DNA from: a virus
Strand: one strand, 5' to 3'
DNA length: 64,000 bases
IMG/VR virus record: IMGVR_UViG_3300035181_002344
Under the pieces are notes generated by a model. It saw only the letters and a list, made by a program, of their open reading frames with translations. It was not told where the DNA came from and did no database searches. A program made the translations under genes and the position numbers. Below are positions 3,696-23,687 of the stretch, piece after piece. The stretch's first letter is position 1. Each line of letters opens with the position of its first letter.

Positions 3696-6212
3696 TTATC
3701 CTATCTTTTTATTTAGATACGCTATATTTGTTGGTTTTGAATTATAAATATTTGCCATCATATCTCTTATGCCTTCGTGACACATATTTACATTAGCCGC
3801 ATTTACCTCTGAATACATAGCTCTTGATGGATGAAAGAAATAATGGTTTTTACCTTTAAGATCGGTAAGCTTGTTTTTCCCTGTGACTAAAGAAATGATT
3901 GGCATTTTTTTATTACTGCCTTCTTCTACGAAATACATATCGGTATCTTCATTGGTGTGCATTGGATTAAGCAAGTGACCTATCCAATCTGCATCATATT
4001 CTACACCTTTGCTTTCTCTCATCATTTCATTGAGATTTTGATATCCGCCTTCCATCTTTCCCTTTCTATATTCAACGGTATAGAAAGAGGTTATTCCGTG
4101 TCGTTTTGATAAATCTTTAGCGGCATTTGACAATTCAGCTATTCTTTTATTATCATCGGCGGCATTTGCAAAATCTTTTAGCTTATACATATTGTCACAG
4201 AAATACCATATTTTTCTATCTGGAAAGTTTTGACGAGCAATATCAATCATCATATCGGCAGATGATAGATTTTTACCTTGCTCGCTGCCTTTTAATATTA
4301 GGCGACCTTCTTTTGTCCACATCATTAATTTATTATAAGCTTCTTCTCTTGCTATGAGGAAGTCTTCTCTATCTGGCGCATCATATTTCCATGGGAATGC
4401 AACATGATTGATTGTCGCTTTTTTGAAAGATTCATATGCTAATGATGCAACAAAACGTGGGATAATTTTATTGCGCGGATCATCTAGTGTATGAAAAATG
4501 ATAGTTATATCATTAAAGCGTTCGTCGTCATATGGAGTGCCTAGCGTAACATCTCCTTCATGAGCATCGAGTATATTTCTTATGAGATTAATGATGAAGC
4601 TTGTTTTTCCAGAATTTGGCTGTCCACCTAACAATAGTACAGCTTCTGATATCATACCATCTATCATTCGTTCAAAATATGGCCAGCTCTTTAGATATAC
4701 AGATCTAAATGCATCTGGTTGCTCTGATAGCATTTTGAACTTTCTGATATAATCATATGATTCGCTGTGGTCAAATGAAAAGCGTTCATATTGTTGAGTG
4801 ATATTGCGAATATTTGATAGGCCTTCGTGCAAAATAACTGAGGCATCGTTGGGATTTTTCTTTAGCTTAACAATGATATTGTCAACCAATGCATCGGTTT
4901 CCATTTTGAGCTTAATTTGTCTTTCATTGCTAAGCATTGCAATATCTTTGCGAATAGATTCTAATGGAATATCTGTGATTTCAGAAAGGATTTTGGCCAT
5001 TCGATCACGTTCGATATTCGATTTCTCATTGATTATGAGAGGAATGGTTTGCTCTGCAATTTCATAACCAGTGAGATCTGTCTGTTCTTTTAATTGCTTG
5101 ATTCTCCATTCAAAAGTTGTAAAATGCGGCAAATTCATAATTCCCTTTTTGCCCTCTTTACGAACTAATTCATCTGGATCCATTCCTTCTGGCATCAAGG
5201 CAATACGCACTCTAAAATTACGAATACCTTCCATTAGCTTTGTTACCATATCGCCGGCTTTCTTTTTACCAACTTCGTCGCCATCAAGCAGAATTACTAT
5301 ATCATTTATTCCAACTGATTGCAATTTTGCAATATGTCCATTGGTTAATTCTGTGCCATTTAATGCGACGGCCTTGATTCCTGCTAAATCTAAAGCTATG
5401 GCATCTGTTTGACCTTCAACAATATAAACCGATCCGAAATGACTTTTTGTTTTAATAACTCTATGTAGGTTATAGAGTAATTCGCTTTTAATGAAAAAGT
5501 CTGTGGTTTTTGTATTGTAGTATTTTGAGCTGCCATCTTCTTTGTTATAAACGCAGTTTCTCGCAGAAAATCCTCTGGGCACTCCATATTCATCTGCTAT
5601 CGTAAATATTAAGTTATCTTTAGCAAATAGTTTGGGTACAATGCCAGCTTTTTCTATGAGTTTTTCGCTATAACCTGCTTTTATAAGTTTGCGAATTAAT
5701 GTTTCATAGCTTCCAGATACTCCGATTCCATATGTTATTAAATATTCTGCTTTTGTTAGCATTTTGCTACGCATATATTTTTCAACACTTTCGGAAATAT
5801 TCTCTGGATTATATGCATTAGAAACGATAAGATTCTTGGTGAAGGTAAGTAATTCGCGAAGATTCATTCTTTCGACTTCTTCTGGAGTCATTGGCCGTAG
5901 TTCTAGATCTATTCCGAAATGCTCGGCTAATTTAGCAATATTATCGGTAATGAATTCATAACCAACGATTGGCGCACCATTAATATGGTGGTTAACGTGA
6001 AATATATCATAGCTAGCACCGCATCCAAAACAATGAGCTATTTTTGTTCCATCTTGCAAGCTATATATACTCATTGATGGAGAAGAATCTTCGTGATCTG
6101 GATTAATGCATTTGAACTTACCGCTATGCTTTTTTATTAATCCTAAATCTTTAAGATAATCTGGTAGCTTGCTTTTTAACTCTCGTTTAACAGATTCTAG
6201 ATCTTTAGCCAT
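3696..6212 (-). CDS. DNA primase-helicase fusion (CHC2 Zn finger, TOPRIM, DnaB-like SF4 helicase)
   Basis: CINPDHEDSSPS...HCFGCG, KYYN, IVEGQTD, LLDGDEVG, DPDE; Walker A GGQPNSGKTS; EYDAD. Confidence 0.92.
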   Translation of the reverse strand: MAKDLESVKRELKSKLPDYLKDLGLIKKHSGKFKCINPDHEDSSPSMSIYSLQDGTKIAHCFGCGASYDIFHVNHHINGAPIVGYEFITDNIAKLAEHFGIDLELRPMTPEEVERMNLRELLTFTKNLIVSNAYNPENISESVEKYMRSKMLTKAEYLITYGIGVSGSYETLIRKLIKAGYSEKLIEKAGIVPKLFAKDNLIFTIADEYGVPRGFSARNCVYNKEDGSSKYYNTKTTDFFIKSELLYNLHRVIKTKSHFGSVYIVEGQTDAIALDLAGIKAVALNGTELTNGHIAKLQSVGINDIVILLDGDEVGKKKAGDMVTKLMEGIRNFRVRIALMPEGMDPDELVRKEGKKGIMNLPHFTTFEWRIKQLKEQTDLTGYEIAEQTIPLIINEKSNIERDRMAKILSEITDIPLESIRKDIAMLSNERQIKLKMETDALVDNIIVKLKKNPNDASVILHEGLSNIRNITQQYERFSFDHSESYDYIRKFKMLSEQPDAFRSVYLKSWPYFERMIDGMISEAVLLLGGQPNSGKTSFIINLIRNILDAHEGDVTLGTPYDDERFNDITIIFHTLDDPRNKIIPRFVASLAYESFKKATINHVAFPWKYDAPDREDFLIAREEAYNKLMMWTKEGRLILKGSEQGKNLSSADMMIDIARQNFPDRKIWYFCDNMYKLKDFANAADDNKRIAELSNAAKDLSKRHGITSFYTVEYRKGKMEGGYQNLNEMMRESKGVEYDADWIGHLLNPMHTNEDTDMYFVEEGSNKKMPIISLVTGKNKLTDLKGKNHYFFHPSRAMYSEVNAANVNMCHEGIRDMMANIYNSKPTNIAYLNKKIG

Positions 6213-6229: not shown

Positions 6230-7276
6230 CTAATCTTTAAAATAAACAGTGATAATTTTCTTAAGTTTTCGCTCTTTAGAAACAGACAAGATCATTTGAG
6301 ATGCTTGGCTGTATGGAGCTGCAATCGTATCGGCAAAATCATCATATCCGCACATAGAAGAGGAACGAACAACTGTAGTTTTTCCAACTTCTACTATTAA
6401 CTGATAATGGTAATGGCCCGTTAGTACAACGTCTGCATTATGTATTCCATGCAATACAAAAGCTTCTCTATCACTGGATGGTGTTCCCGCAGATTTTTTC
6501 ATAATATGTCTGAGATGAAAATTCCATCCTTTGATATTTATATTTATTGACTGTGAATCGCCAAGATTTGTTTTGTATTCATTGGTAACATTTTTCATTA
6601 TATTCGGGTCATGCAATTGCAAACTTCTGATTGTCGTTTCCCACGCTTTGGCTACGCCTTTGTCCCAATTGTCATCGGGATGACGTGAGAGTTTTGATTT
6701 TGGCGTTCCGTGGTTACCTGGAACCCAATGAAAATCAACGGGCAATAATTTATCGTATTTTTCTATGAAAAAGTCATTAAGCTTCTTCATATTTTTATTC
6801 AACGATGTAATAAATGCCGCAGTTTGCGCATGTACAATATCATCGGTTAAAAATCCTTGCGTCGGATATGTTGAACCATCGCCTTCTATATGGTCTCCAA
6901 GCATGCATATTTTAACCTGATCGTATGTATCTGGATTGTTATTAATTTCTTCGATTGCTTCATCAAAGAGCTGTGACATTCTTTTATCCGCAATCTTGAG
7001 ATTAAATACCTCTTTGTATGGCGGTTTTAGAGAATGCCTTATTTTACCGAAATGGTTATCTGAAATTACTATTACTAAAGCTTCTTTATCGTCGGATATT
7101 GGTATTTTAGGATGATATATTTTTTTATGATCTCTTAAAAGTGTCTCTAATACATCGAGCCAATTACGACGGATTCTTGTTTTTGAAGCATTATTTTGTA
7201 TTTCTAAATTAGAAAGAGTGGAGACAAAGTCGCACTCTTCCTCATTAAGTGGCTCTAATAATTCATTTTCATTCAT
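6230..7276 (-). CDS. Calcineurin-like metallophosphoesterase
   Basis: SDNHFG, LGDHIEG, PGNHG, RH and GHYH motifs. Confidence 0.85.
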   Translation of the reverse strand: MNENELLEPLNEEECDFVSTLSNLEIQNNASKTRIRRNWLDVLETLLRDHKKIYHPKIPISDDKEALVIVISDNHFGKIRHSLKPPYKEVFNLKIADKRMSQLFDEAIEEINNNPDTYDQVKICMLGDHIEGDGSTYPTQGFLTDDIVHAQTAAFITSLNKNMKKLNDFFIEKYDKLLPVDFHWVPGNHGTPKSKLSRHPDDNWDKGVAKAWETTIRSLQLHDPNIMKNVTNEYKTNLGDSQSININIKGWNFHLRHIMKKSAGTPSSDREAFVLHGIHNADVVLTGHYHYQLIVEVGKTTVVRSSSMCGYDDFADTIAAPYSQASQMILSVSKERKLKKIITVYFKD

Positions 7277-9702
7277 ATTGCTTCCATGTTATAAAGTGGA
7301 TCTTTGATTTTTGCCAGTCCTAACAAGTATTCAGCTGTATAACTTTGTCCGATGAATTTACCATATATTTGGTATTTGCCATTTGTTTTAGACAATTTAT
7401 TATATAGCTGGTCTAATAACGGAATTGACCGTATCTCTAAAGGAATATCGTATTTTGTTTGCTCATTCCTTTCTGGCAACTTGATGACTGACATACTATT
7501 TAACCAATATGATTCTTCAGGGTCGTCCGTTCTTATACCGCTAACTCCAACTGCAGATCCTTCTAGAGTTTTAATCATATTTTTATAACTGGACATTTTT
7601 CGGCTTGTTATTATATATTTTGATTCTTTGTTATTTAAGGTGCGTACAATAACTAAAGCACCTTTTCCAGATTTGAAAGCAATCACCTTTTTTACAATGC
7701 CATAGGTCATATTCTCGTTCTTTTTCTTGGCTTCTGCAATTGCTAAGCGATAACGTTCAAATGGATCATATTTAATATTCAAACCGAGAGTTTCTAATTC
7801 GAATGCTGCAAGCTTTTCATCATCATACTCCAGCATTTCAGGAAATGAAATCCATTCCTTTTTGAATGGTAGTAATGACCATTCTTTTGTTTTGTAATGT
7901 TTAATGAATTTAAGCAAATAATCGATATAACGAGTTTCTCCTTCTTTGATTGCAAATACTTGTGATATTTTAATCATTGAAGAAAATGCGCCCGATTTTA
8001 TCATTTGCTCAAGTACATTAGATTTAACATCTGTTCTATATATAAAATCTGACAATGATTTAAATAGCCCGTGTTTTTGTCTTTCTGCCATGAAGGCTTC
8101 TGCTGATTGCACGCCTACATTTTTAATACCGCCTAATCCAAATAATATTGTTTTGTCATCAATAACTCTGAAATTAGCATAACTTCTATTGATATCTGGG
8201 GGATATAGTTTAATTCCGTAATATTCGGCTTCTTTTAAGAATGCTGTAACGCTTTCTTGATCGCCTATGTCAGTAATAATATTTGCGGTATAAAATTCTG
8301 CTCTATAATGTGTTTTCAAATATGCTGTTTTAACAGCTAACACTGAGTAAGCAAGAGCATGGGACTTATTAAACGCGTAATTTGAAAAGGATTCCATTTC
8401 ACTCCAAAGAGCATTGATATCATCAAGGGACATCCCTTTTTGCATTGCTTTTTCTGTGAAACGAACCTTTTCTTTGGCCATTTTCTCTGTAATCTTTTTA
8501 GCAACGATCTTTCTAAATTCGTCTCCTTCATGGTCAGAATAACCTGCTAAATCTTGCACTAGCCTTTGAATTTGTTCTTGATATATGAAATATCCATAGG
8601 TATCTTTGAAGATATCTTTTACCAAAGGAAATCTTTCGCCATGCGGCAGAATATGTGTTGGTTGGCCGCCATTGCGGATAATGATTATTTCCTTTAAGAA
8701 TTCCATCGGGCCTGGTCGAAAAGCCGCATTGATAAGTGTGATGTCATTTAAATTTGTTGGCTGAAAATCTCTTACAACTCTTGAAATGCCATCTCCTTCA
8801 AATTGGAAAATACCAAGCAATCTACCTTCGGCCATAAATTTATATGTCGCCGGATCATCTAATGGAATATCGTCCAATGTTAACTTTATTCCTCTGTTCT
8901 CTTCTATCAGCTCAAGACATGTTTTTATCACGTTTAATGTAGATAATCCGAGAAAATCCATTTTTATTAAACCAAGCTCTTCAGCTTCTTGCATCGTGAA
9001 TTCGACTATAGGTATGTCGATGCCATCAACAGTTTTATCTTGTTGCCTCCAAACTGGTGCAACTTCGTTGATTGGCACCGATGATATTACATACCCTGCC
9101 GCATGCTGCGAAGGAGATTTTATGAGACCTTCTAGTTTAATAGCGTGGTCAACAATTCTTTTGAGATCTTCATCTTTCTCATATGCTTTTTGGAATTCCT
9201 TGAGCCCTCCTTTAGGGTCCATTATTTTCTTGAACGTCCAAGCTCGACCTAAAATGGCTGCGGGTATTAGTTTAGCATATTGATCTGCTTTAGCAAAATC
9301 ATAGCCTAAAACTCTTGCTGCTGTACGAAGGGCATTTTTAGCCCATATGTAATTTCTTGCGGATAAACCAGCTACTTTGTCACTGCCATACTTATCAATA
9401 ACATATTGAAGCACATGCAGTCTATCGGCATCTGGAAAATCAATATCTATATCAGGTATTGTTCCGCCTTTGTATTTTACTGAACCTAATGGTTTTTCTT
9501 CAGCTATGCCAATTAGATAGGCTACCATTGAATTAACCTGCCGATTATCAACAGTAATTCTTTTTTCTAATATTTCAAGGAAATAGTCTTCCATCTCGGC
9601 TATTTCAATAGCACCTATTTCTTTTTTGTAAGCTTGATATTCAATGTCATTGAGTTGTTTGAGTCTGGGGCTCTGTTGACATATCTGTCTTAGCTTCTGC
9701 AT
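7273..9702 (-). CDS. dnaE: DNA polymerase III alpha subunit, C-terminal part (palm, fingers, HhH, OB)
   Basis: PDIDIDF, HAAGYVI, GLIKMDFLGL, GIFQFE, RPGP, YQEQ, YAFNKSHA, GLGGIKNVG. Confidence 0.95.
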   Translation of the reverse strand: MQKLRQICQQSPRLKQLNDIEYQAYKKEIGAIEIAEMEDYFLEILEKRITVDNRQVNSMVAYLIGIAEEKPLGSVKYKGGTIPDIDIDFPDADRLHVLQYVIDKYGSDKVAGLSARNYIWAKNALRTAARVLGYDFAKADQYAKLIPAAILGRAWTFKKIMDPKGGLKEFQKAYEKDEDLKRIVDHAIKLEGLIKSPSQHAAGYVISSVPINEVAPVWRQQDKTVDGIDIPIVEFTMQEAEELGLIKMDFLGLSTLNVIKTCLELIEENRGIKLTLDDIPLDDPATYKFMAEGRLLGIFQFEGDGISRVVRDFQPTNLNDITLINAAFRPGPMEFLKEIIIIRNGGQPTHILPHGERFPLVKDIFKDTYGYFIYQEQIQRLVQDLAGYSDHEGDEFRKIVAKKITEKMAKEKVRFTEKAMQKGMSLDDINALWSEMESFSNYAFNKSHALAYSVLAVKTAYLKTHYRAEFYTANIITDIGDQESVTAFLKEAEYYGIKLYPPDINRSYANFRVIDDKTILFGLGGIKNVGVQSAEAFMAERQKHGLFKSLSDFIYRTDVKSNVLEQMIKSGAFSSMIKISQVFAIKEGETRYIDYLLKFIKHYKTKEWSLLPFKKEWISFPEMLEYDDEKLAAFELETLGLNIKYDPFERYRLAIAEAKKKNENMTYGIVKKVIAFKSGKGALVIVRTLNNKESKYIITSRKMSSYKNMIKTLEGSAVGVSGIRTDDPEESYWLNSMSVIKLPERNEQTKYDIPLEIRSIPLLDQLYNKLSKTNGKYQIYGKFIGQSYTAEYLLGLAKIKDPLYNMEAI

Positions 9703-16076: not shown

Positions 16077-16298
16077 TCAATAAATATTTAATTCTTTAAT
16101 GTAAGCTAAATCTTCATCGCTAATATTAATATTGATTTCGTCAATATTAATATCGATGCCGATTGTACCTCTATCGGCTTTATTGTCTATTACCGCTATT
16201 TCGTTAATTGCTTTATGTACGGCCTCTCTTAGTGAATTCGCTTCAACAGCTAATACAACTGACCGCTCATATTTAATTGGAATATTGTAAAATCTCAT
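16077..16298 (-). CDS. Hypothetical protein
   Basis: 73-aa ORF. Confidence 0.55.
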   Translation of the reverse strand: MRFYNIPIKYERSVVLAVEANSLREAVHKAINEIAVIDNKADRGTIGIDINIDEININISDEDLAYIKELNIY

Positions 16299-16386
16299 AG
16301 TATTTCTATATTAGTTAAAATGTAATTTATTTTTTTTTGGTGTATTTTCAATGTAAACGCCAAAGGTTTAAACTTATTTTCGTCTT

Positions 16387-16734
16387 AAAAAGTTCCTTTA
16401 TACCCCGATTTCTCGGGGTTTAAAAGGAAGACCGTGATACGGCTATTCGCCCTTATGGGCTCTAACAAGCCAGTTATACCACACAGCAGCAGCCGTTGCT
16501 GGCATTTATGACAGCAACAGCCGCTGCTGTTAATTGCTAAGCCATTATTGTTTAATGGTTTCCTCTTAGGCTCCTTTGCAGGAGCCCATCAAAGGAATCG
16601 TGCGACGCACTGTTACTACCAGGACTCTTCGAATCCATCGTGCGGTGTCCATGGTAGAGATCTAGATCCAATGCATCCTATACAGCTACAACTACGGTTG
16701 TAGCTGTTGCTGATTATGTCTCAGATGTTCTGAG
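16387..16734 (-). ncRNA. Candidate large (~350 nt) structured ncRNA, class unknown
   Basis: About nine helices, GC-enriched relative to flanks, GCAA and GAAA tetraloops, mismatches become G-U on minus strand, possible CGCAC/GUGCG pseudoknot. Confidence 0.7.
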
Positions 16735-16761
16735 TTTTTCATTTTCTTTAATAATTCATTT

Positions 16762-19545
16762 TCAACCACAGCCTGTTGTTTCACCACAGCTTAAACATGT
16801 ATTGCATTTACCGGTCTTTACCATCAAGCCGCCACAGATATGGCAAACTTCACCAGTGTGGATGCTTTTTTGTTCTTCGTGTTTTTCTTGTATTTCAGGC
16901 TGAATTGATATTTGTTCTTCGCTTACTTTATCCTGGCTATCTGGGTTTTCTTGTTTATCGAGATAATTGAACATTAAGAATTTGCTTATGTAATCAATAA
17001 CACTCGTAGCAAAGCGGATATCGGCGTTTGTTGTAATTCCTGATGGTTCAAATTTAGTGTTTAAGAATTTCTGGGTCATAAATTCTAATGGTACACCATA
17101 TTGTAGTGCAATACTAAACATCGTTGCCCAGCTATCCATGAGTCCAGAAATTGTTGAGCCTTCTTTAGACATATTAACAAATATTTCGCCAGGTTTATTA
17201 TCGTCATAGAATCCAACTGTTAAGAATCCTTTGAATCCGCCGATACTAAATTTATGCGTAATTGACTTTCTAGTATTTGGCAGCTTCTTTCTTATTGGTT
17301 TTGGTCTTCCATTTGATAATCCGTCTTGGACTATTTCCACGGTTTGTTTTTCGCTTTTTGTATTTAATGGTTGACTGGATTTACAGCCGTCTCTATAAAT
17401 TGCTAAAGCTTTTAGATCTTTGTGATATGCCATTTTATAGGCTTCCATGACATCTTCTATGGTTGCCGAATTTGGCATATTAACAGTTTTGCTAATAGCA
17501 CCAGACAAGAATGGTTGAATGGCTGCCATCATATTAATATGGCCTTGCCATGGTATATTTTCACCAGTTCCAAATGATGTGGCAAATATACTTCTATGTT
17601 CTGGTGCTATTGCTGTATCGCTAACTAATTTATTTTTCTCAATATCTGTAAGTATCGATTGTATAGTTTTTTCTTCATATCCTAATGTTTCTAAGGCGTA
17701 TCTTATTGATGGGATTGTTAAGATTAATTCTCCGCCGCCGACTAATTTTTTATAGCTTACTAAACCTAATACTGGTTCAACTCCTGTTGTTTCACAATCC
17801 ATCATAAAACTAATTGTTCCCGTCGGTGCTAACACTGTTACTTGAGCATTTCGCATTGGTATAAAATTGCCCGAAGCATCACGCTCTGTAACTGTTTTAA
17901 TTTGTTCTATTGCTTTATCTGTAATATCAGATAAATATTTGTCATCGGGGTGCAAAATTGATATTCTATTTTGTAAAACTAGTGTAGCATCATAATGTTT
18001 ACGTAAAACATTAGCCATTGCTTCTGCATTTTTCTCCCATTCTTCAAATGCACCTAATTCTTTGCCTAACTCACCAGATGTTGCATATGAAGTATTATGT
18101 ATAAGTGCAGAAATTGCTGCTGCTAAATTTCTTGCTTTATGCGAATCATATGGTAATCCATAACTTAATAATAGAGCACCTAAATTTGTAAAACCTAAGC
18201 CGATAGTACGATATTTCTTAGTTTCGGTGGCTATTTTCTCTGTAGGATATGCTGCTTCGCTGATCCATATATCTTTGGCCACAGTTGCTATACGAGATGC
18301 ATGTATTAGGCCATCAATATCGAAACTATTAATCCAAGCGTTATCTACTTTTTTATGTGAGAAAAACTTCATTAAATTTAATGAGCCTAAATTACATGAT
18401 GTATCGTCTAAAAACATGTATTCGCTACATGGATTTGAAGCAGTGATTGTTCCGCTATTTGGGCATGTATGCCATTCGTTAATCGTATCGTGAAATTGAA
18501 TGCCTGGATCTCCTGTTAGCCATGCGCATTCTGCTGCTTCTTTAAATAGATTTTTGGCCTTTAGCCATTCAATAACTTTATATCCGCCTTCTTTTTTCAG
18601 GAGCCAAGAATCATCTTTGCTTCTATAAAATTGTCCTTGTGCATTTGCATAATTTGGATCAAATTCCACTGCCGTTGGATATCTTTCTAATAAAGCCCAA
18701 TCTTGATCTTTTTCTACAGCTTCCATAAAAGCATTTGTAGCTCTTATTGATTGATTGCTGTTCTGAAAATATACGCTGCCATAAGCACCTTTTGGATCGT
18801 CAAATCTATTATTCCAACCAGCTGCAATTAGTGCTTGAACTTTCTTCTCTTCTTCTGCTTTTTGCCAAATGAATTCTCTAATATCTCCATGATCCACATT
18901 AAGAATTTCCATTTTGGCTGCTCGTCTATTTTTGCCTCCAGACTTAGTTACATTAGCTACGGCATCATAAATTTTCATAAAACTATTAGGTCCAGAAGCT
19001 TTTCCGCCGCCAGATACACCTTCTCTTGAGCTTCTAAGTTTGCTTCTGTTGCTGCCAGCGCCTGAGCCGCCACGGAATACCTGCATTTCAACAGCTGCAT
19101 TTGCACCTATTGATTCAATTGTATCTTCTGCTGATATAATAAAGCAAGCGGATACTTGTTGTCTAGACCATGGGTTTCCTATGTTAAACCATACAGGAGA
19201 ATTAAATGAATACATTTGATATAAAAGCATATACGTTAATTCTTCTGCATAGATTGTCTTATCTTCATCGCTTGTAAAATAACCTTGCTTTTGTCCCCAT
19301 TGGACATTTGTATTTACTACGCGATTTATTAATTGTTTAAGAGAATATTCTCTTTCTTCTGTGTTTAATTTCCCGCAAAAATATTTACTTGCTATAATAT
19401 TTATTGCGTTTTGCGAATAGAAATCTGGGAATTCTACCTTTTCTTGTTTGAATTGAGATCCAGGAATTTCTGCATCTACTGTTATCCAATTCACTGTGTC
19501 AAATGGATGAACTCCTTCTTTAGTAAATCGACGATTAAACTGCAT
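16762..19545 (-). CDS. nrdJ: Class II (B12-dependent) ribonucleotide reductase with C-terminal TSCPD and Zn ribbon
   Basis: FNSPVWFN, QVSACFI, RRAAKM, SNPCSE, APTGTIS, ISKTVN, YRDGCK.SQP, terminal CxxC..CxxC. Confidence 0.95.
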   Translation of the reverse strand: MQFNRRFTKEGVHPFDTVNWITVDAEIPGSQFKQEKVEFPDFYSQNAINIIASKYFCGKLNTEEREYSLKQLINRVVNTNVQWGQKQGYFTSDEDKTIYAEELTYMLLYQMYSFNSPVWFNIGNPWSRQQVSACFIISAEDTIESIGANAAVEMQVFRGGSGAGSNRSKLRSSREGVSGGGKASGPNSFMKIYDAVANVTKSGGKNRRAAKMEILNVDHGDIREFIWQKAEEEKKVQALIAAGWNNRFDDPKGAYGSVYFQNSNQSIRATNAFMEAVEKDQDWALLERYPTAVEFDPNYANAQGQFYRSKDDSWLLKKEGGYKVIEWLKAKNLFKEAAECAWLTGDPGIQFHDTINEWHTCPNSGTITASNPCSEYMFLDDTSCNLGSLNLMKFFSHKKVDNAWINSFDIDGLIHASRIATVAKDIWISEAAYPTEKIATETKKYRTIGLGFTNLGALLLSYGLPYDSHKARNLAAAISALIHNTSYATSGELGKELGAFEEWEKNAEAMANVLRKHYDATLVLQNRISILHPDDKYLSDITDKAIEQIKTVTERDASGNFIPMRNAQVTVLAPTGTISFMMDCETTGVEPVLGLVSYKKLVGGGELILTIPSIRYALETLGYEEKTIQSILTDIEKNKLVSDTAIAPEHRSIFATSFGTGENIPWQGHINMMAAIQPFLSGAISKTVNMPNSATIEDVMEAYKMAYHKDLKALAIYRDGCKSSQPLNTKSEKQTVEIVQDGLSNGRPKPIRKKLPNTRKSITHKFSIGGFKGFLTVGFYDDNKPGEIFVNMSKEGSTISGLMDSWATMFSIALQYGVPLEFMTQKFLNTKFEPSGITTNADIRFATSVIDYISKFLMFNYLDKQENPDSQDKVSEEQISIQPEIQEKHEEQKSIHTGEVCHICGGLMVKTGKCNTCLSCGETTGCG

Positions 19546-20109: not shown

Positions 20110-20326
20110 CAACATGCCTCCACTTTGCGATGGAGGCTTATGGACTACCTCATCTCTGTTGTCTTTTAAACGAGAAGTCCTTTCTCGTTTTAGTCGCTTG
20201 AATGAATTTGCATTCAAGTGAGCATCAGCGTTAGTTCCCTATGCTCGTTCTTCCCTAGCGTCGTGAACTAATTATATAGCCAGCACGAGCAATTTCGTGA
20301 ACAGACCATATAATTAGCACGCGCTA
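20110..20326 (-). ncRNA. Candidate ~215-nt structured RNA
   Basis: 71-nt interrupted hairpin (20256-20326) with G-U pairs on minus strand, followed by four hairpins; possible GGACU/AGUCC pseudoknot. Confidence 0.65.
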
Positions 20327-22588: not shown

Positions 22589-22849
22589 TTATTCTTCCTT
22601 ATTTGTATTATCTTGTTTATAGCTATCGGGTCCCATTAATTTATATAAGTTTTCATGTGGGACTGGTTCTCTTTTGCCTGTGAATTTTCCTCGTTTTTCT
22701 GGATCTAAATGATCACGAGAATAGAAGATAGCGCCACAATTTAGACAAGCTTCATCTGCGTCAAAAGCTTTCCATATTTTGTTAACTTTGTCGCTACCAC
22801 AAAACGGGCATTTGTTATCGAGAATATTTGGTGTTGTGTCAGTTGTCAT
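22589..22849 (-). CDS. Small Zn-ribbon protein
   Basis: CPFCGS...CLNCG; start overlaps RT stop. Confidence 0.7.
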   Translation of the reverse strand: MTTDTTPNILDNKCPFCGSDKVNKIWKAFDADEACLNCGAIFYSRDHLDPEKRGKFTGKREPVPHENLYKLMGPDSYKQDNTNKEE

Positions 22850-23687
22850 TTAAGATTCTCCGTGCAAGTTTTTGTAAATAAAAATAGTTTTTCTTGTTAT
22901 CTGCTAGATTAAGTTGTTCGATTTTTCCACGTATATGCGGATTGATCTGACGAATATTAATTAGCTCTTTGATAATGTTCTGAATATATTGACGCTCAAT
23001 ATTTCGTTTAACATTAACCACGATGCCTAAAACTAATTGTCTTTGATAATAAGGCATCACTTTACTTTTTCGTAAGTTTAGTTCGAAACCATATCGCTTA
23101 CAAATATCGTTAATAATCGATATAGTTTCTTTTGGAACAGAGTTACCAGAGATATATAGATTATCTCCATAATTTGAATAACTCCATTGGTTTCGATCGC
23201 ATATTTCCTGTATACTAACATCAATCGGTTGTCGTATAGCATTAGCGATATGTGGAGATGTTATGAAACCTTGTGGAAGTTTTCCATTGTACGTTAATAA
23301 TTCAATAAAATCTTGTAAATCAATGTTAAGCAAATTAAGTAACTCGGGGATTTTCTGATTATAAACAAATAGCCCGATTAGATGATCTTTCGTAATGTTA
23401 TCATAGAAATTCTTAATATCGGCTTCTAAAACGTATCGTTTGCCAACATGAATATTAGCACAGTCTCCCCTTGATCTTCCTTTTATCCAAGCATAGCTTG
23501 CATGATGAATATTAAAAACATTGTTATCAATGAAATAGTCAAGAATATATTTCTGTGCCTTTTTATATTCTGAATTTGGAGCAATAATATGACGACGTTT
23601 TATTTTGCCTTTCTTTTTTCTATGCTGCACATACGTTGATACATAATTTGCTTTATTGGCAAGTATATTCTTTATAAGCTGACGCAT
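22839..23687 (-). CDS. Retron-like reverse transcriptase with YGDN catalytic motif
   Basis: R.I.AP...K..Q, CANIH (region X-like), DIKNFY, LPQG..TSP..AN, YSNYGDNLYISG, GF.LN..K, VLGIVVN (VTG-like region Y). Confidence 0.88.
   Translation of the reverse strand: MRQLIKNILANKANYVSTYVQHRKKKGKIKRRHIIAPNSEYKKAQKYILDYFIDNNVFNIHHASYAWIKGRSRGDCANIHVGKRYVLEADIKNFYDNITKDHLIGLFVYNQKIPELLNLLNIDLQDFIELLTYNGKLPQGFITSPHIANAIRQPIDVSIQEICDRNQWSYSNYGDNLYISGNSVPKETISIINDICKRYGFELNLRKSKVMPYYQRQLVLGIVVNVKRNIERQYIQNIIKELINIRQINPHIRGKIEQLNLADNKKNYFYLQKLARRILNDN

Follow-up and report, generated by a model that had tools for sequence, protein, structure and literature searches.

A structured, partly conserved RNA element downstream of nrdJ in an uncultured phage: a possible 3' untranslated region with its own terminator

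Results

Genomic setting of the element

The stretch of DNA analysed here, referred to as the window (64,000 nucleotides), is part of a 154-kb contig from an uncultured virus, with 35% G+C and an estimated completeness of 75% (CheckV). The contig consists of two convergent gene blocks, one on the plus strand (0-77 kb), which holds the structural genes, and one on the minus strand (77-154 kb); nearly all genes in its right half lie on the minus strand. Many of the phage genes carry strong AAGGAGG ribosome-binding sites, which speaks against a host from the Bacteroidota even though the G+C content is low.

The element described here (16387-16734, minus strand) follows nrdJ (16762..19545, minus strand). 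This gene encodes a complete class II (B12-dependent) ribonucleotide reductase of 927 amino acids (Pfam PF02867, E 2.6e-123; PF08471; PF12637), and a C-terminal alignment showed that its tail, ...CGETTGCG, agrees with that of its relatives. The element sits inside a 463-nt gap between the nrdJ stop codon and an open reading frame (ORF) of 73 amino acids (16077..16298, minus strand), for which we found no Pfam or PHROG family match. Beyond this ORF lie RecA, SprT-like and UDG-like genes, and Pfam and PHROG searches revealed no RNA-related domains among the neighbouring genes.

A spacer flanks the element on each side. On the nrdJ side, only 27 A-rich nucleotides (16735..16761, minus strand; 89% identical in a sister phage described below) separate the stop codon from the first hairpin, and a scan for minus-strand terminators found none among them. 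Because nothing but this terminator-less spacer intervenes, transcripts of nrdJ must enter the element. On the other side, the spacer (16299..16386, minus strand) is A+T-rich and poorly conserved (52% identity and 30 gap columns relative to the sister), and contains promoter-like hexamers, with sigma-70-like matches at 16357-16329 and 16351-16324; its last ~25 nt before the ATG of the 73-aa ORF are nearly identical in the sister. This conserved stretch (TTTTAAYTAATATAGARATACT; 16299-16325 in the window, 1975-2001 in sister contig L133) contains no Shine-Dalgarno sequence, unlike the region preceding many other genes of the phage (AAGGAGG), and may represent a -10 box that leaves only a very short leader.

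We found no coding potential that would account for the gap. Stop codons of all three kinds occur in every frame, and no frame opens under any single stop-codon reassignment, so a recoded or hidden ORF was rejected. We likewise rejected a duplicated nrdJ tail: no gap frame contains a second ...ETTGCG, and the C terminus of nrdJ itself is complete and matches its relatives.

The element folds far more stably than shuffled sequence

We found that the minus-strand sequence (366 nt) has a minimum free energy (MFE) of -155.7 kcal/mol, compared with a mean of -94.9 kcal/mol (sd 5.1) for dinucleotide shuffles (z -11.85); none of 100 shuffles was as stable. The unusual folding suspected in the preliminary description thus holds against shuffled sequence. 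The plus strand folds less stably by 17.7 kcal/mol (-138.0 kcal/mol, z -8.6). The G+C content of the element (0.47) exceeds that of the genome (0.35), and in a G+C-corrected scan of the 154-kb genome the three consecutive 150-nt windows at the element rank 3rd, 6th and 13th of 2,056.

Structured DNA also occurs elsewhere in this genome. In the 150-nt scan, the other most structured places are the two contig ends (152500-153700 and 1-2500; z down to -4.5), and at 152.5-153.6 kb a repeated leader of ~110 nt (GTAGGCCC..CCGAGTTTAACA..GGCTTTnGTAGG..), which has no Rfam match, precedes three genes. The gap at 20124-20323, upstream of a two-gene unit formed by a 188-aa ORF and nrdJ, is structured as well (z -5.7 on the gene strand, -3.0 on the other); pairing between this gap and the element is no better than for shuffles.

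The predicted fold of the element is a linear string of eight simple hairpins (H1 to H8) with a terminator at the end. Folded singly, H2, H4, H5, H6 and H8 reach z scores of -4 to -8, while H3 and H7 reach only about -2; the fold signal of the element is therefore due mainly to the five near-perfect hairpins. Every helix that had been proposed for this region is present on the minus strand at its proposed position.

In the 5'-to-3' direction, H1 is a 6-bp hairpin, CUCAGA-ACA-UCUGAG (16720..16734, pairing 16734-16729 with 16725-16720; z -3.9), that resembles a weak terminator in the plus-strand terminator scan. H2 is a perfect 11-bp hairpin with a CGUA loop (16682..16707, pairing 16707-16697 with 16692-16682; -16.5 kcal/mol, z -6.3). 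H3 (16598..16681; z -2.1) is a variable, weakly folded domain composed of a 9-bp outer helix, a CUACCA/UGGUAG helix (16657-16652/16621-16616) and inner alternatives. Within H3, the previously proposed GGAUUC/GAGUCC helix can form, but only as an alternative to the MFE pairing, and the proposed CGCAC/GUGCG pseudoknot is likewise weak: it competes with a 9-bp MFE helix, and the sister phage has not kept its GUGCG site.

The next segment (16511..16606), which we term the conserved core, comprises H4, H5 and the first arm of H6. H4 (16560-16597) has the form UUCCUUU..UGGGCUCCU-GCAA-AGGAGCCUA..AGAGGAA, with a GCAA loop, and is followed by H5 (16542-16558). The first H6 arm (16511-16530) is near-palindromic and forms a hairpin by itself; in the window's phage it pairs with a second arm to yield H6 (16483..16530, pairing 16530-16512 with 16501-16483), a 19-bp helix plus 2 bp that includes two G-U pairs (-37.3 kcal/mol, z -8.0). 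H6 is built by two copies of an 18-19-nt near-palindrome (repeat family D1), a unit that H2 shares. H7 (16434..16482; z -2.4) is a variable, branched hairpin, GUGGUAU...GUAUCAC.

The element ends in H8 (16387..16429, minus strand; hairpin 16429-16393; -19.5 kcal/mol, z -4.1), in which CCCCGA-GAAA-UCGGGG lies inside a UUCCUUU/AAAGGAA stem. This interrupted 14-bp hairpin has a GAAA loop; after it come a C and then UUUUU (16387-16391). H8 thus combines the features of an intrinsic terminator: a GC-rich hairpin and an immediate U tract, on the transcribed strand and downstream of a gene. A simple terminator scan missed it because of its internal loop. From its sequence and its conservation in the sister, we conclude that H8 with its U5 tract is a conserved, predicted intrinsic terminator.

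About half of the element is conserved in a sister phage

We reached the sister phage by way of the 73-aa ORF. Searching with this ORF turned up a protein, P0122, that is 75% identical by BLASTP and 76-77% identical in two further alignments. It lies on three short contigs (L133, L134 and L135), which share synteny with the window in the order nrdJ 3' part, 500-nt gap, small ORF and receiver-domain gene. The sister nrdJ is 93% identical in amino acid sequence over the C-terminal 500 residues and 90.7% identical in nucleotide sequence, with 74.7% identity at four-fold degenerate sites (133/178); the small ORF is 80% identical in nucleotide sequence (7/14 at four-fold sites). Among population variants, L004 and L005 match the window at 100% identity across 5-7.6 kb. 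Our alignment of window and sister (A5) compares the two distinct element sequences available in total.

Conservation in this alignment is sharply partitioned. Identity is 100% for H1, 88% for H2, 87% for H4, 95% for H5, 89% for the first H6 arm and 91% for H8 and its U tract; it falls to 35% in H3, 24% in the H6 loop and second arm, 33% in H7 and 52% in the downstream spacer. The conserved islands (147 of 162 positions identical) exceed the four-fold sites of nrdJ (p 1e-4). The conservation of H1 and H2 might be hitch-hiking with the well-conserved end of nrdJ. The same cannot be said of the four islands distal to H3, in which 109 of 121 positions are identical (compared with the four-fold sites, p 9e-4; with the spacer next to them, p 3e-11). 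Together, these comparisons support the view that purifying selection acts on parts of the element in a second phage lineage. The sister element as a whole has the same order of hairpins and a z score of -8.5, and a covariance model built from a single sequence (R1) detects the sister with an E value of 8.8e-17. The element has one homologue, in this sister phage, with about half of its length conserved.

We examined the substitutions that fall within the 61 base pairs of the conserved helices and found one compensatory change, four one-sided changes that preserve pairing and two broken pairs. The compensatory change converts A-U to U-A at 16419/16402 in H8. The one-sided changes are C-G to U-G in H2, at the pair closing the loop (which itself becomes CAUU while the stem is kept), U-A to U-G and U-G to C-G in H4, and G-U to G-C in the H6 arm. 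Both broken pairs adjoin internal loops, and one of them, U-A to G-A, is a break in the conserved core. H4 in the sister also has a 2-nt deletion, absorbed by a shift in register. In a two-sequence covariation control, 250 of 500 shuffles reached the observed score, so that with two distinct sequences the covariation carries no statistical weight.

The variable parts are rewired between the lineages. The first H6 unit of the sister forms a 9-bp hairpin of its own, and the degenerate second unit pairs downstream instead, as the 5' strand of a different hairpin that takes the place of H7 (52 nt, z -3.0). The 19-bp H6 helix is thus restricted to the window's lineage, where it arose by duplication or conversion of the 18-19-nt near-palindrome shared with H2. 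H3 is homologous across both lineages but riddled with indels, and measures 103 nt in the sister. Such rewiring of helices between lineages, with overall stability kept, fits a generic structural role.

This pattern bears on the possibility that all hairpins except H8 are functionless palindromes, generated by local duplication and inversion in a tolerant spacer, whose apparent conservation reflects no more than the closeness of the two lineages. The derivation of H2 and both H6 arms from one repeated unit of ~19 nt is what such an origin predicts, as are the difference in H6 by duplication or conversion, the decay of H3 and H7 by indels and a sister H3 that folds no better than shuffles (z -0.5). 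Several results oppose it: the distal islands are 90% identical, against 52% in spacer 100 nt further on and 75% at nrdJ four-fold sites; stem substitutions preferentially keep pairing; and the raised G+C content and extreme stability are kept in both lineages. We consider this by-product origin improbable.

Strand asymmetry favours a fold in the transcribed RNA

An element of this kind could also be read as double-stranded or cruciform DNA, as a replication origin, a set of palindromic operators or a recombination site. Its location in a DNA-metabolism module between nrdJ and recA would suit this proposal, as would its three near-palindromic CAGCARC..GYTGCTG copies and the iteron-like ATAGATA palindromes found at the equivalent place in a more distant relative, L050. 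In that 155-kb relative, ~240 nt directly after nrdJ (5829-6065; 29% G+C) consist of iterated TATCTATATAGATA-type palindromes that are equally stable on both strands and look like iterons or an origin rather than RNA. The window's element behaves differently in ways that speak against a DNA-level function. Nine G-U pairs in its local hairpins form on the minus strand only, where the plus strand has A-C mismatches, compared with one or two that form on the plus strand only; this strand bias is what an RNA read from the gene strand would show, and does not fit a DNA cruciform. Each of the four wobble-type changes between the lineages keeps pairing either on both strands or on just the minus strand, and the two that create wobbles are A-C mismatches on the other strand. 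In addition, where the H6 units differ from each other, the positions complement one another across the two units and not inside a single unit, the G+C content lies above and not below the genome average, and the GC skew has no inflection here. A DNA-level element is, in our judgement, very unlikely.

The element matches no described RNA family

We searched the window with the Rfam 15 models, a set that includes GOLLD, ROOL, OLE, HEARO, raiA, tmRNA, RNase P, group I and II introns, riboswitches, T-box elements and ribozymes, and obtained no match at gathering thresholds across the whole window. With permissive filters and E values up to 10, the best match over 16200-16900 had an E value of 0.5 and 19.5 bits. 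It was to the COG3943 RNA motif (RF02941), whose hairpin and long helix align weakly with 16483-16564; this score compares with a gathering threshold of 71.8, and the matched part is the lineage-specific H6. ARAGORN found no tRNA or tmRNA in the window, nor in the whole 154-kb genome. These results agree with the statement in the preliminary description that hallmarks of tmRNA, RNase P and group I/II introns are lacking, and its suggestion of an unassigned large phage RNA survives to the extent that the element is non-coding, structured on the gene strand and without family. The adjective 'ornate' does not survive: the element is a linear string of hairpins, of which H3, H7 and the second H6 arm are poorly conserved and rewired between lineages.

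Similarly, blastn against 50,697 phage records found no nucleotide homologue; pattern scans of the phage database, IMG/VR, metagenomes and genome collections gave chance matches only or none; and the 154-kb genome contains no second copy or paralogue. In IMG/VR, searches anchored on recA and on the small-ORF alignment found nothing. A search for C-terminal fragments of nrdJ was swamped by matches of 48-51%. Three single-sequence covariance models (R1-R3), which do detect the sister and so had power at that distance, found no match in 88 other nrdJ loci (10 + 78; ~790 kb) or at the contig ends; the 78 further viral loci among these amount to 719 kb. The search for homologues in related phages therefore yielded one sister phage and none of these 88 loci.

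Full-length nrdJ relatives are at most 56% identical. In four syntenic ones (L006, L009, L048 and L050), the interval from nrdJ to recA contains non-coding DNA that is significantly structured (z -5 to -9), including gaps of 0.9-1.3 kb in L050 and L009 (z -5 to -9). These gaps cannot be aligned with the element: BLAST and R1-R3 gave no match, and shuffled-alignment z scores were about 0. A search of the relatives' loci against Rfam returned nothing except one tRNA. Short motifs that seemed shared by eye (AGAUCUC, CAGUGCG, AAC-GUA-GUU) proved to be at chance level, and a frequent word, TGAATTATTAA, considered as a promoter, is a common codon string for Glu-Leu-Leu. Across 49 other phage loci, the median gap after nrdJ is 36 nt; because of this, we regard the long structured tail as a trait of a small phage group and not of nrdJ.

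In L048, which shares the RT-Whirly-...-nrdJ synteny, a 1.26-kb gene-free stretch before recA (7221-8480; z -5.7 to -7.2) contains a tRNA-Lys (7235-7310; found by ARAGORN and missed by Rfam at gathering) and four copies of TAGACACACA (7710, 7827, 8253 and 8459), three of which extend to TAGACACACAAG; three of the four are preceded by a hairpin of the CCC-UUUU-GGG type. By its sequence, this stretch looks like a tandem series of small structured RNAs, each led by a promoter or processing site. The only other homologue of the 73-aa ORF that we found (37% identity, E 2e-4) lies at 4001-4234 of L136, from a 4-Mb bacterial contig (NCBI GCA_019638015.1). There, in a bacterial chromosome, it follows 886 nt without genes, and its neighbours are a DUF2357/PDDEXK_7 gene, an rve_3 fragment and a large helicase-like gene; these surroundings are reminiscent of a mobile or defence island. 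Upstream of this homologue there is no similar RNA.

The reverse transcriptase is an implausible partner

The preliminary description had put forward the element as one candidate trans template or scaffold for the reverse transcriptase (RT) of this phage. Such a role would resemble that of a retron msr-msd or of the template repeat of a diversity-generating retroelement (DGR). The genome does encode an RT with no obvious adjacent non-coding RNA, and the long H6 hairpin superficially resembles an msd stem. Every more specific expectation failed, however. The RT gene (22839-23687) belongs to a separate operon of tightly packed genes, ~6 kb upstream and several genes away, which is not a retron arrangement; no second near-identical copy, and thus no template/variable repeat pair, exists in 154 kb; the sister lineage lacks the long stem of H6; and L048 keeps the RT-Whirly-nrdJ synteny with no homologue of the element. 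We therefore give this proposal almost no credence.

Discussion

Our results indicate that the element is a real, partly conserved structured RNA outside the known families, most likely an elaborate 3' UTR and terminator module. As its best explanation we favour, tentatively, a structured, non-coding 3' tail of the nrdJ transcription unit, on the minus strand like all of its neighbouring genes, that terminates the transcript, protects it from nucleases and is possibly processed. RNA polymerase leaving nrdJ would meet its first terminator at H8, and the next gene would be driven from its own promoter-like, partly conserved upstream region. We infer that H1, H2 and the core of H4, H5 and the first H6 arm act as RNA, forming a compact, nuclease-resistant 3' end, and that the hairpins upstream of H8 would insulate and stabilise the long nrdJ message. 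In the window's phage, H6 (about 22 bp) is a plausible processing site of the RNase III type, and a cut there might free the distal part as a stable RNA. What selection seems to preserve is dense, stable folding together with a few particular hairpins, not a single fixed three-dimensional architecture.

Some features count against such a tail. With 350 nt and eight hairpins, the element far exceeds what a terminator or 3' stabiliser needs, and the median gap of 36 nt elsewhere shows that nrdJ as such needs no tail of this kind. Conservation of a core flanked by variable parts is compatible, too, with a specific RNA that binds a protein or acts in trans.

The main rival is accordingly a stand-alone or released RNA: a trans-acting non-coding RNA, either independently made or processed, that represents a new, narrowly distributed phage family, in which the ~96-nt core binds a protein or RNA and H8 is its own terminator. 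In its favour, the core is conserved between a diverged H3 and H7, and the nrdJ-recA interval of distant relatives is a structured non-coding island (the tRNA-Lys and TAGACACACAAG units of L048; L050 and L009). A weak sigma-70-like match at 16742-16713, with a conserved -10 box (CATAAT), could even supply a promoter, but it matches at only 9 of 12 positions, has a worse -35 box in the sister and overlaps H1. Further points against this rival are the rewired architecture between two close lineages, the silence of R1-R3 at the 88 other nrdJ loci and the lack of an evident partner gene among neighbours without RNA-related domains. We judge it rather unlikely, though the strongest of the alternatives. 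Rather unlikely, too, is the more specific proposal that the core (16511-16606) and H8 are a new phage RNA cut from the nrdJ transcript and acting in trans, for example as a protein scaffold or decoy; the interval between nrdJ and recA would then be an island of stable RNA particular to the lineage, which in relatives contains tRNA genes and other, unrelated structured RNAs.

Little of the 3' UTR and intergenic RNA repertoire of phages has been charted, and this element offers a clear, exceptionally stable case on a nucleotide-metabolism gene, from a phage lineage with no cultured relatives. It also illustrates how such elements may evolve: a few hairpins and the terminator are fixed, and their neighbours are duplicated, rewired and eroded over a short distance. 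If the core is a released RNA with a partner of its own, it would found a new small phage RNA family; if not, the element is a well-documented but ordinary terminator-plus-stabiliser module. Either way, its link to the orphan reverse transcriptase of the phage can be dropped.

Like retrons and DGRs, this phage has an RT in its genome and the element has a long, stable hairpin. A retron msr-msd lies directly beside its RT gene, normally just upstream, in one transcript, and is bounded by a1/a2 inverted repeats. The element is not adjacent to the RT, from which nrdJ and other genes separate it. In place of notable a1/a2 repeats it has a closing A/U helix of just 6 bp, and its long hairpin has not been conserved. 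In a DGR, a target gene carries at its 3' end a variable repeat that is nearly identical to the template and differs from it at adenines; the element has no such partner anywhere in the genome.

The nearest parallels among large RNAs are GOLLD (RF01998) and ROOL (RF03087), large ornate RNAs that are often carried by phages near tRNA genes (PMC12286853, PMC5737381). The element resembles them in being phage-borne, large, G+C-enriched and non-coding, and in that the same interval of distant relatives holds tRNA genes and other structured RNAs. Unlike them, it has no useful Rfam score and is half their size or less; it is also linear, lacking multi-way junctions as well as conserved pseudoknots, and its architecture differs even between two close lineages.

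The element comes closest to the terminator and stabiliser modules of 3' UTRs. In bacteria and phages, intrinsic terminators with upstream stabilising hairpins are barriers to 3'-to-5' exonucleases, and RNase III sites lie between phage genes, as in the R sites of T7 and the sib retroregulation of lambda. Like such modules, the element lies on the strand of the upstream gene with no terminator in between, and it ends in a GC-rich hairpin and U tract that are conserved with a compensatory change; by analogy with RNase III sites, the ~22-bp helix of H6 has the size that RNase III cuts. It differs from known stabilisers in being longer and more elaborate, with eight hairpins over 350 nt and a separately conserved core of 96 nt.
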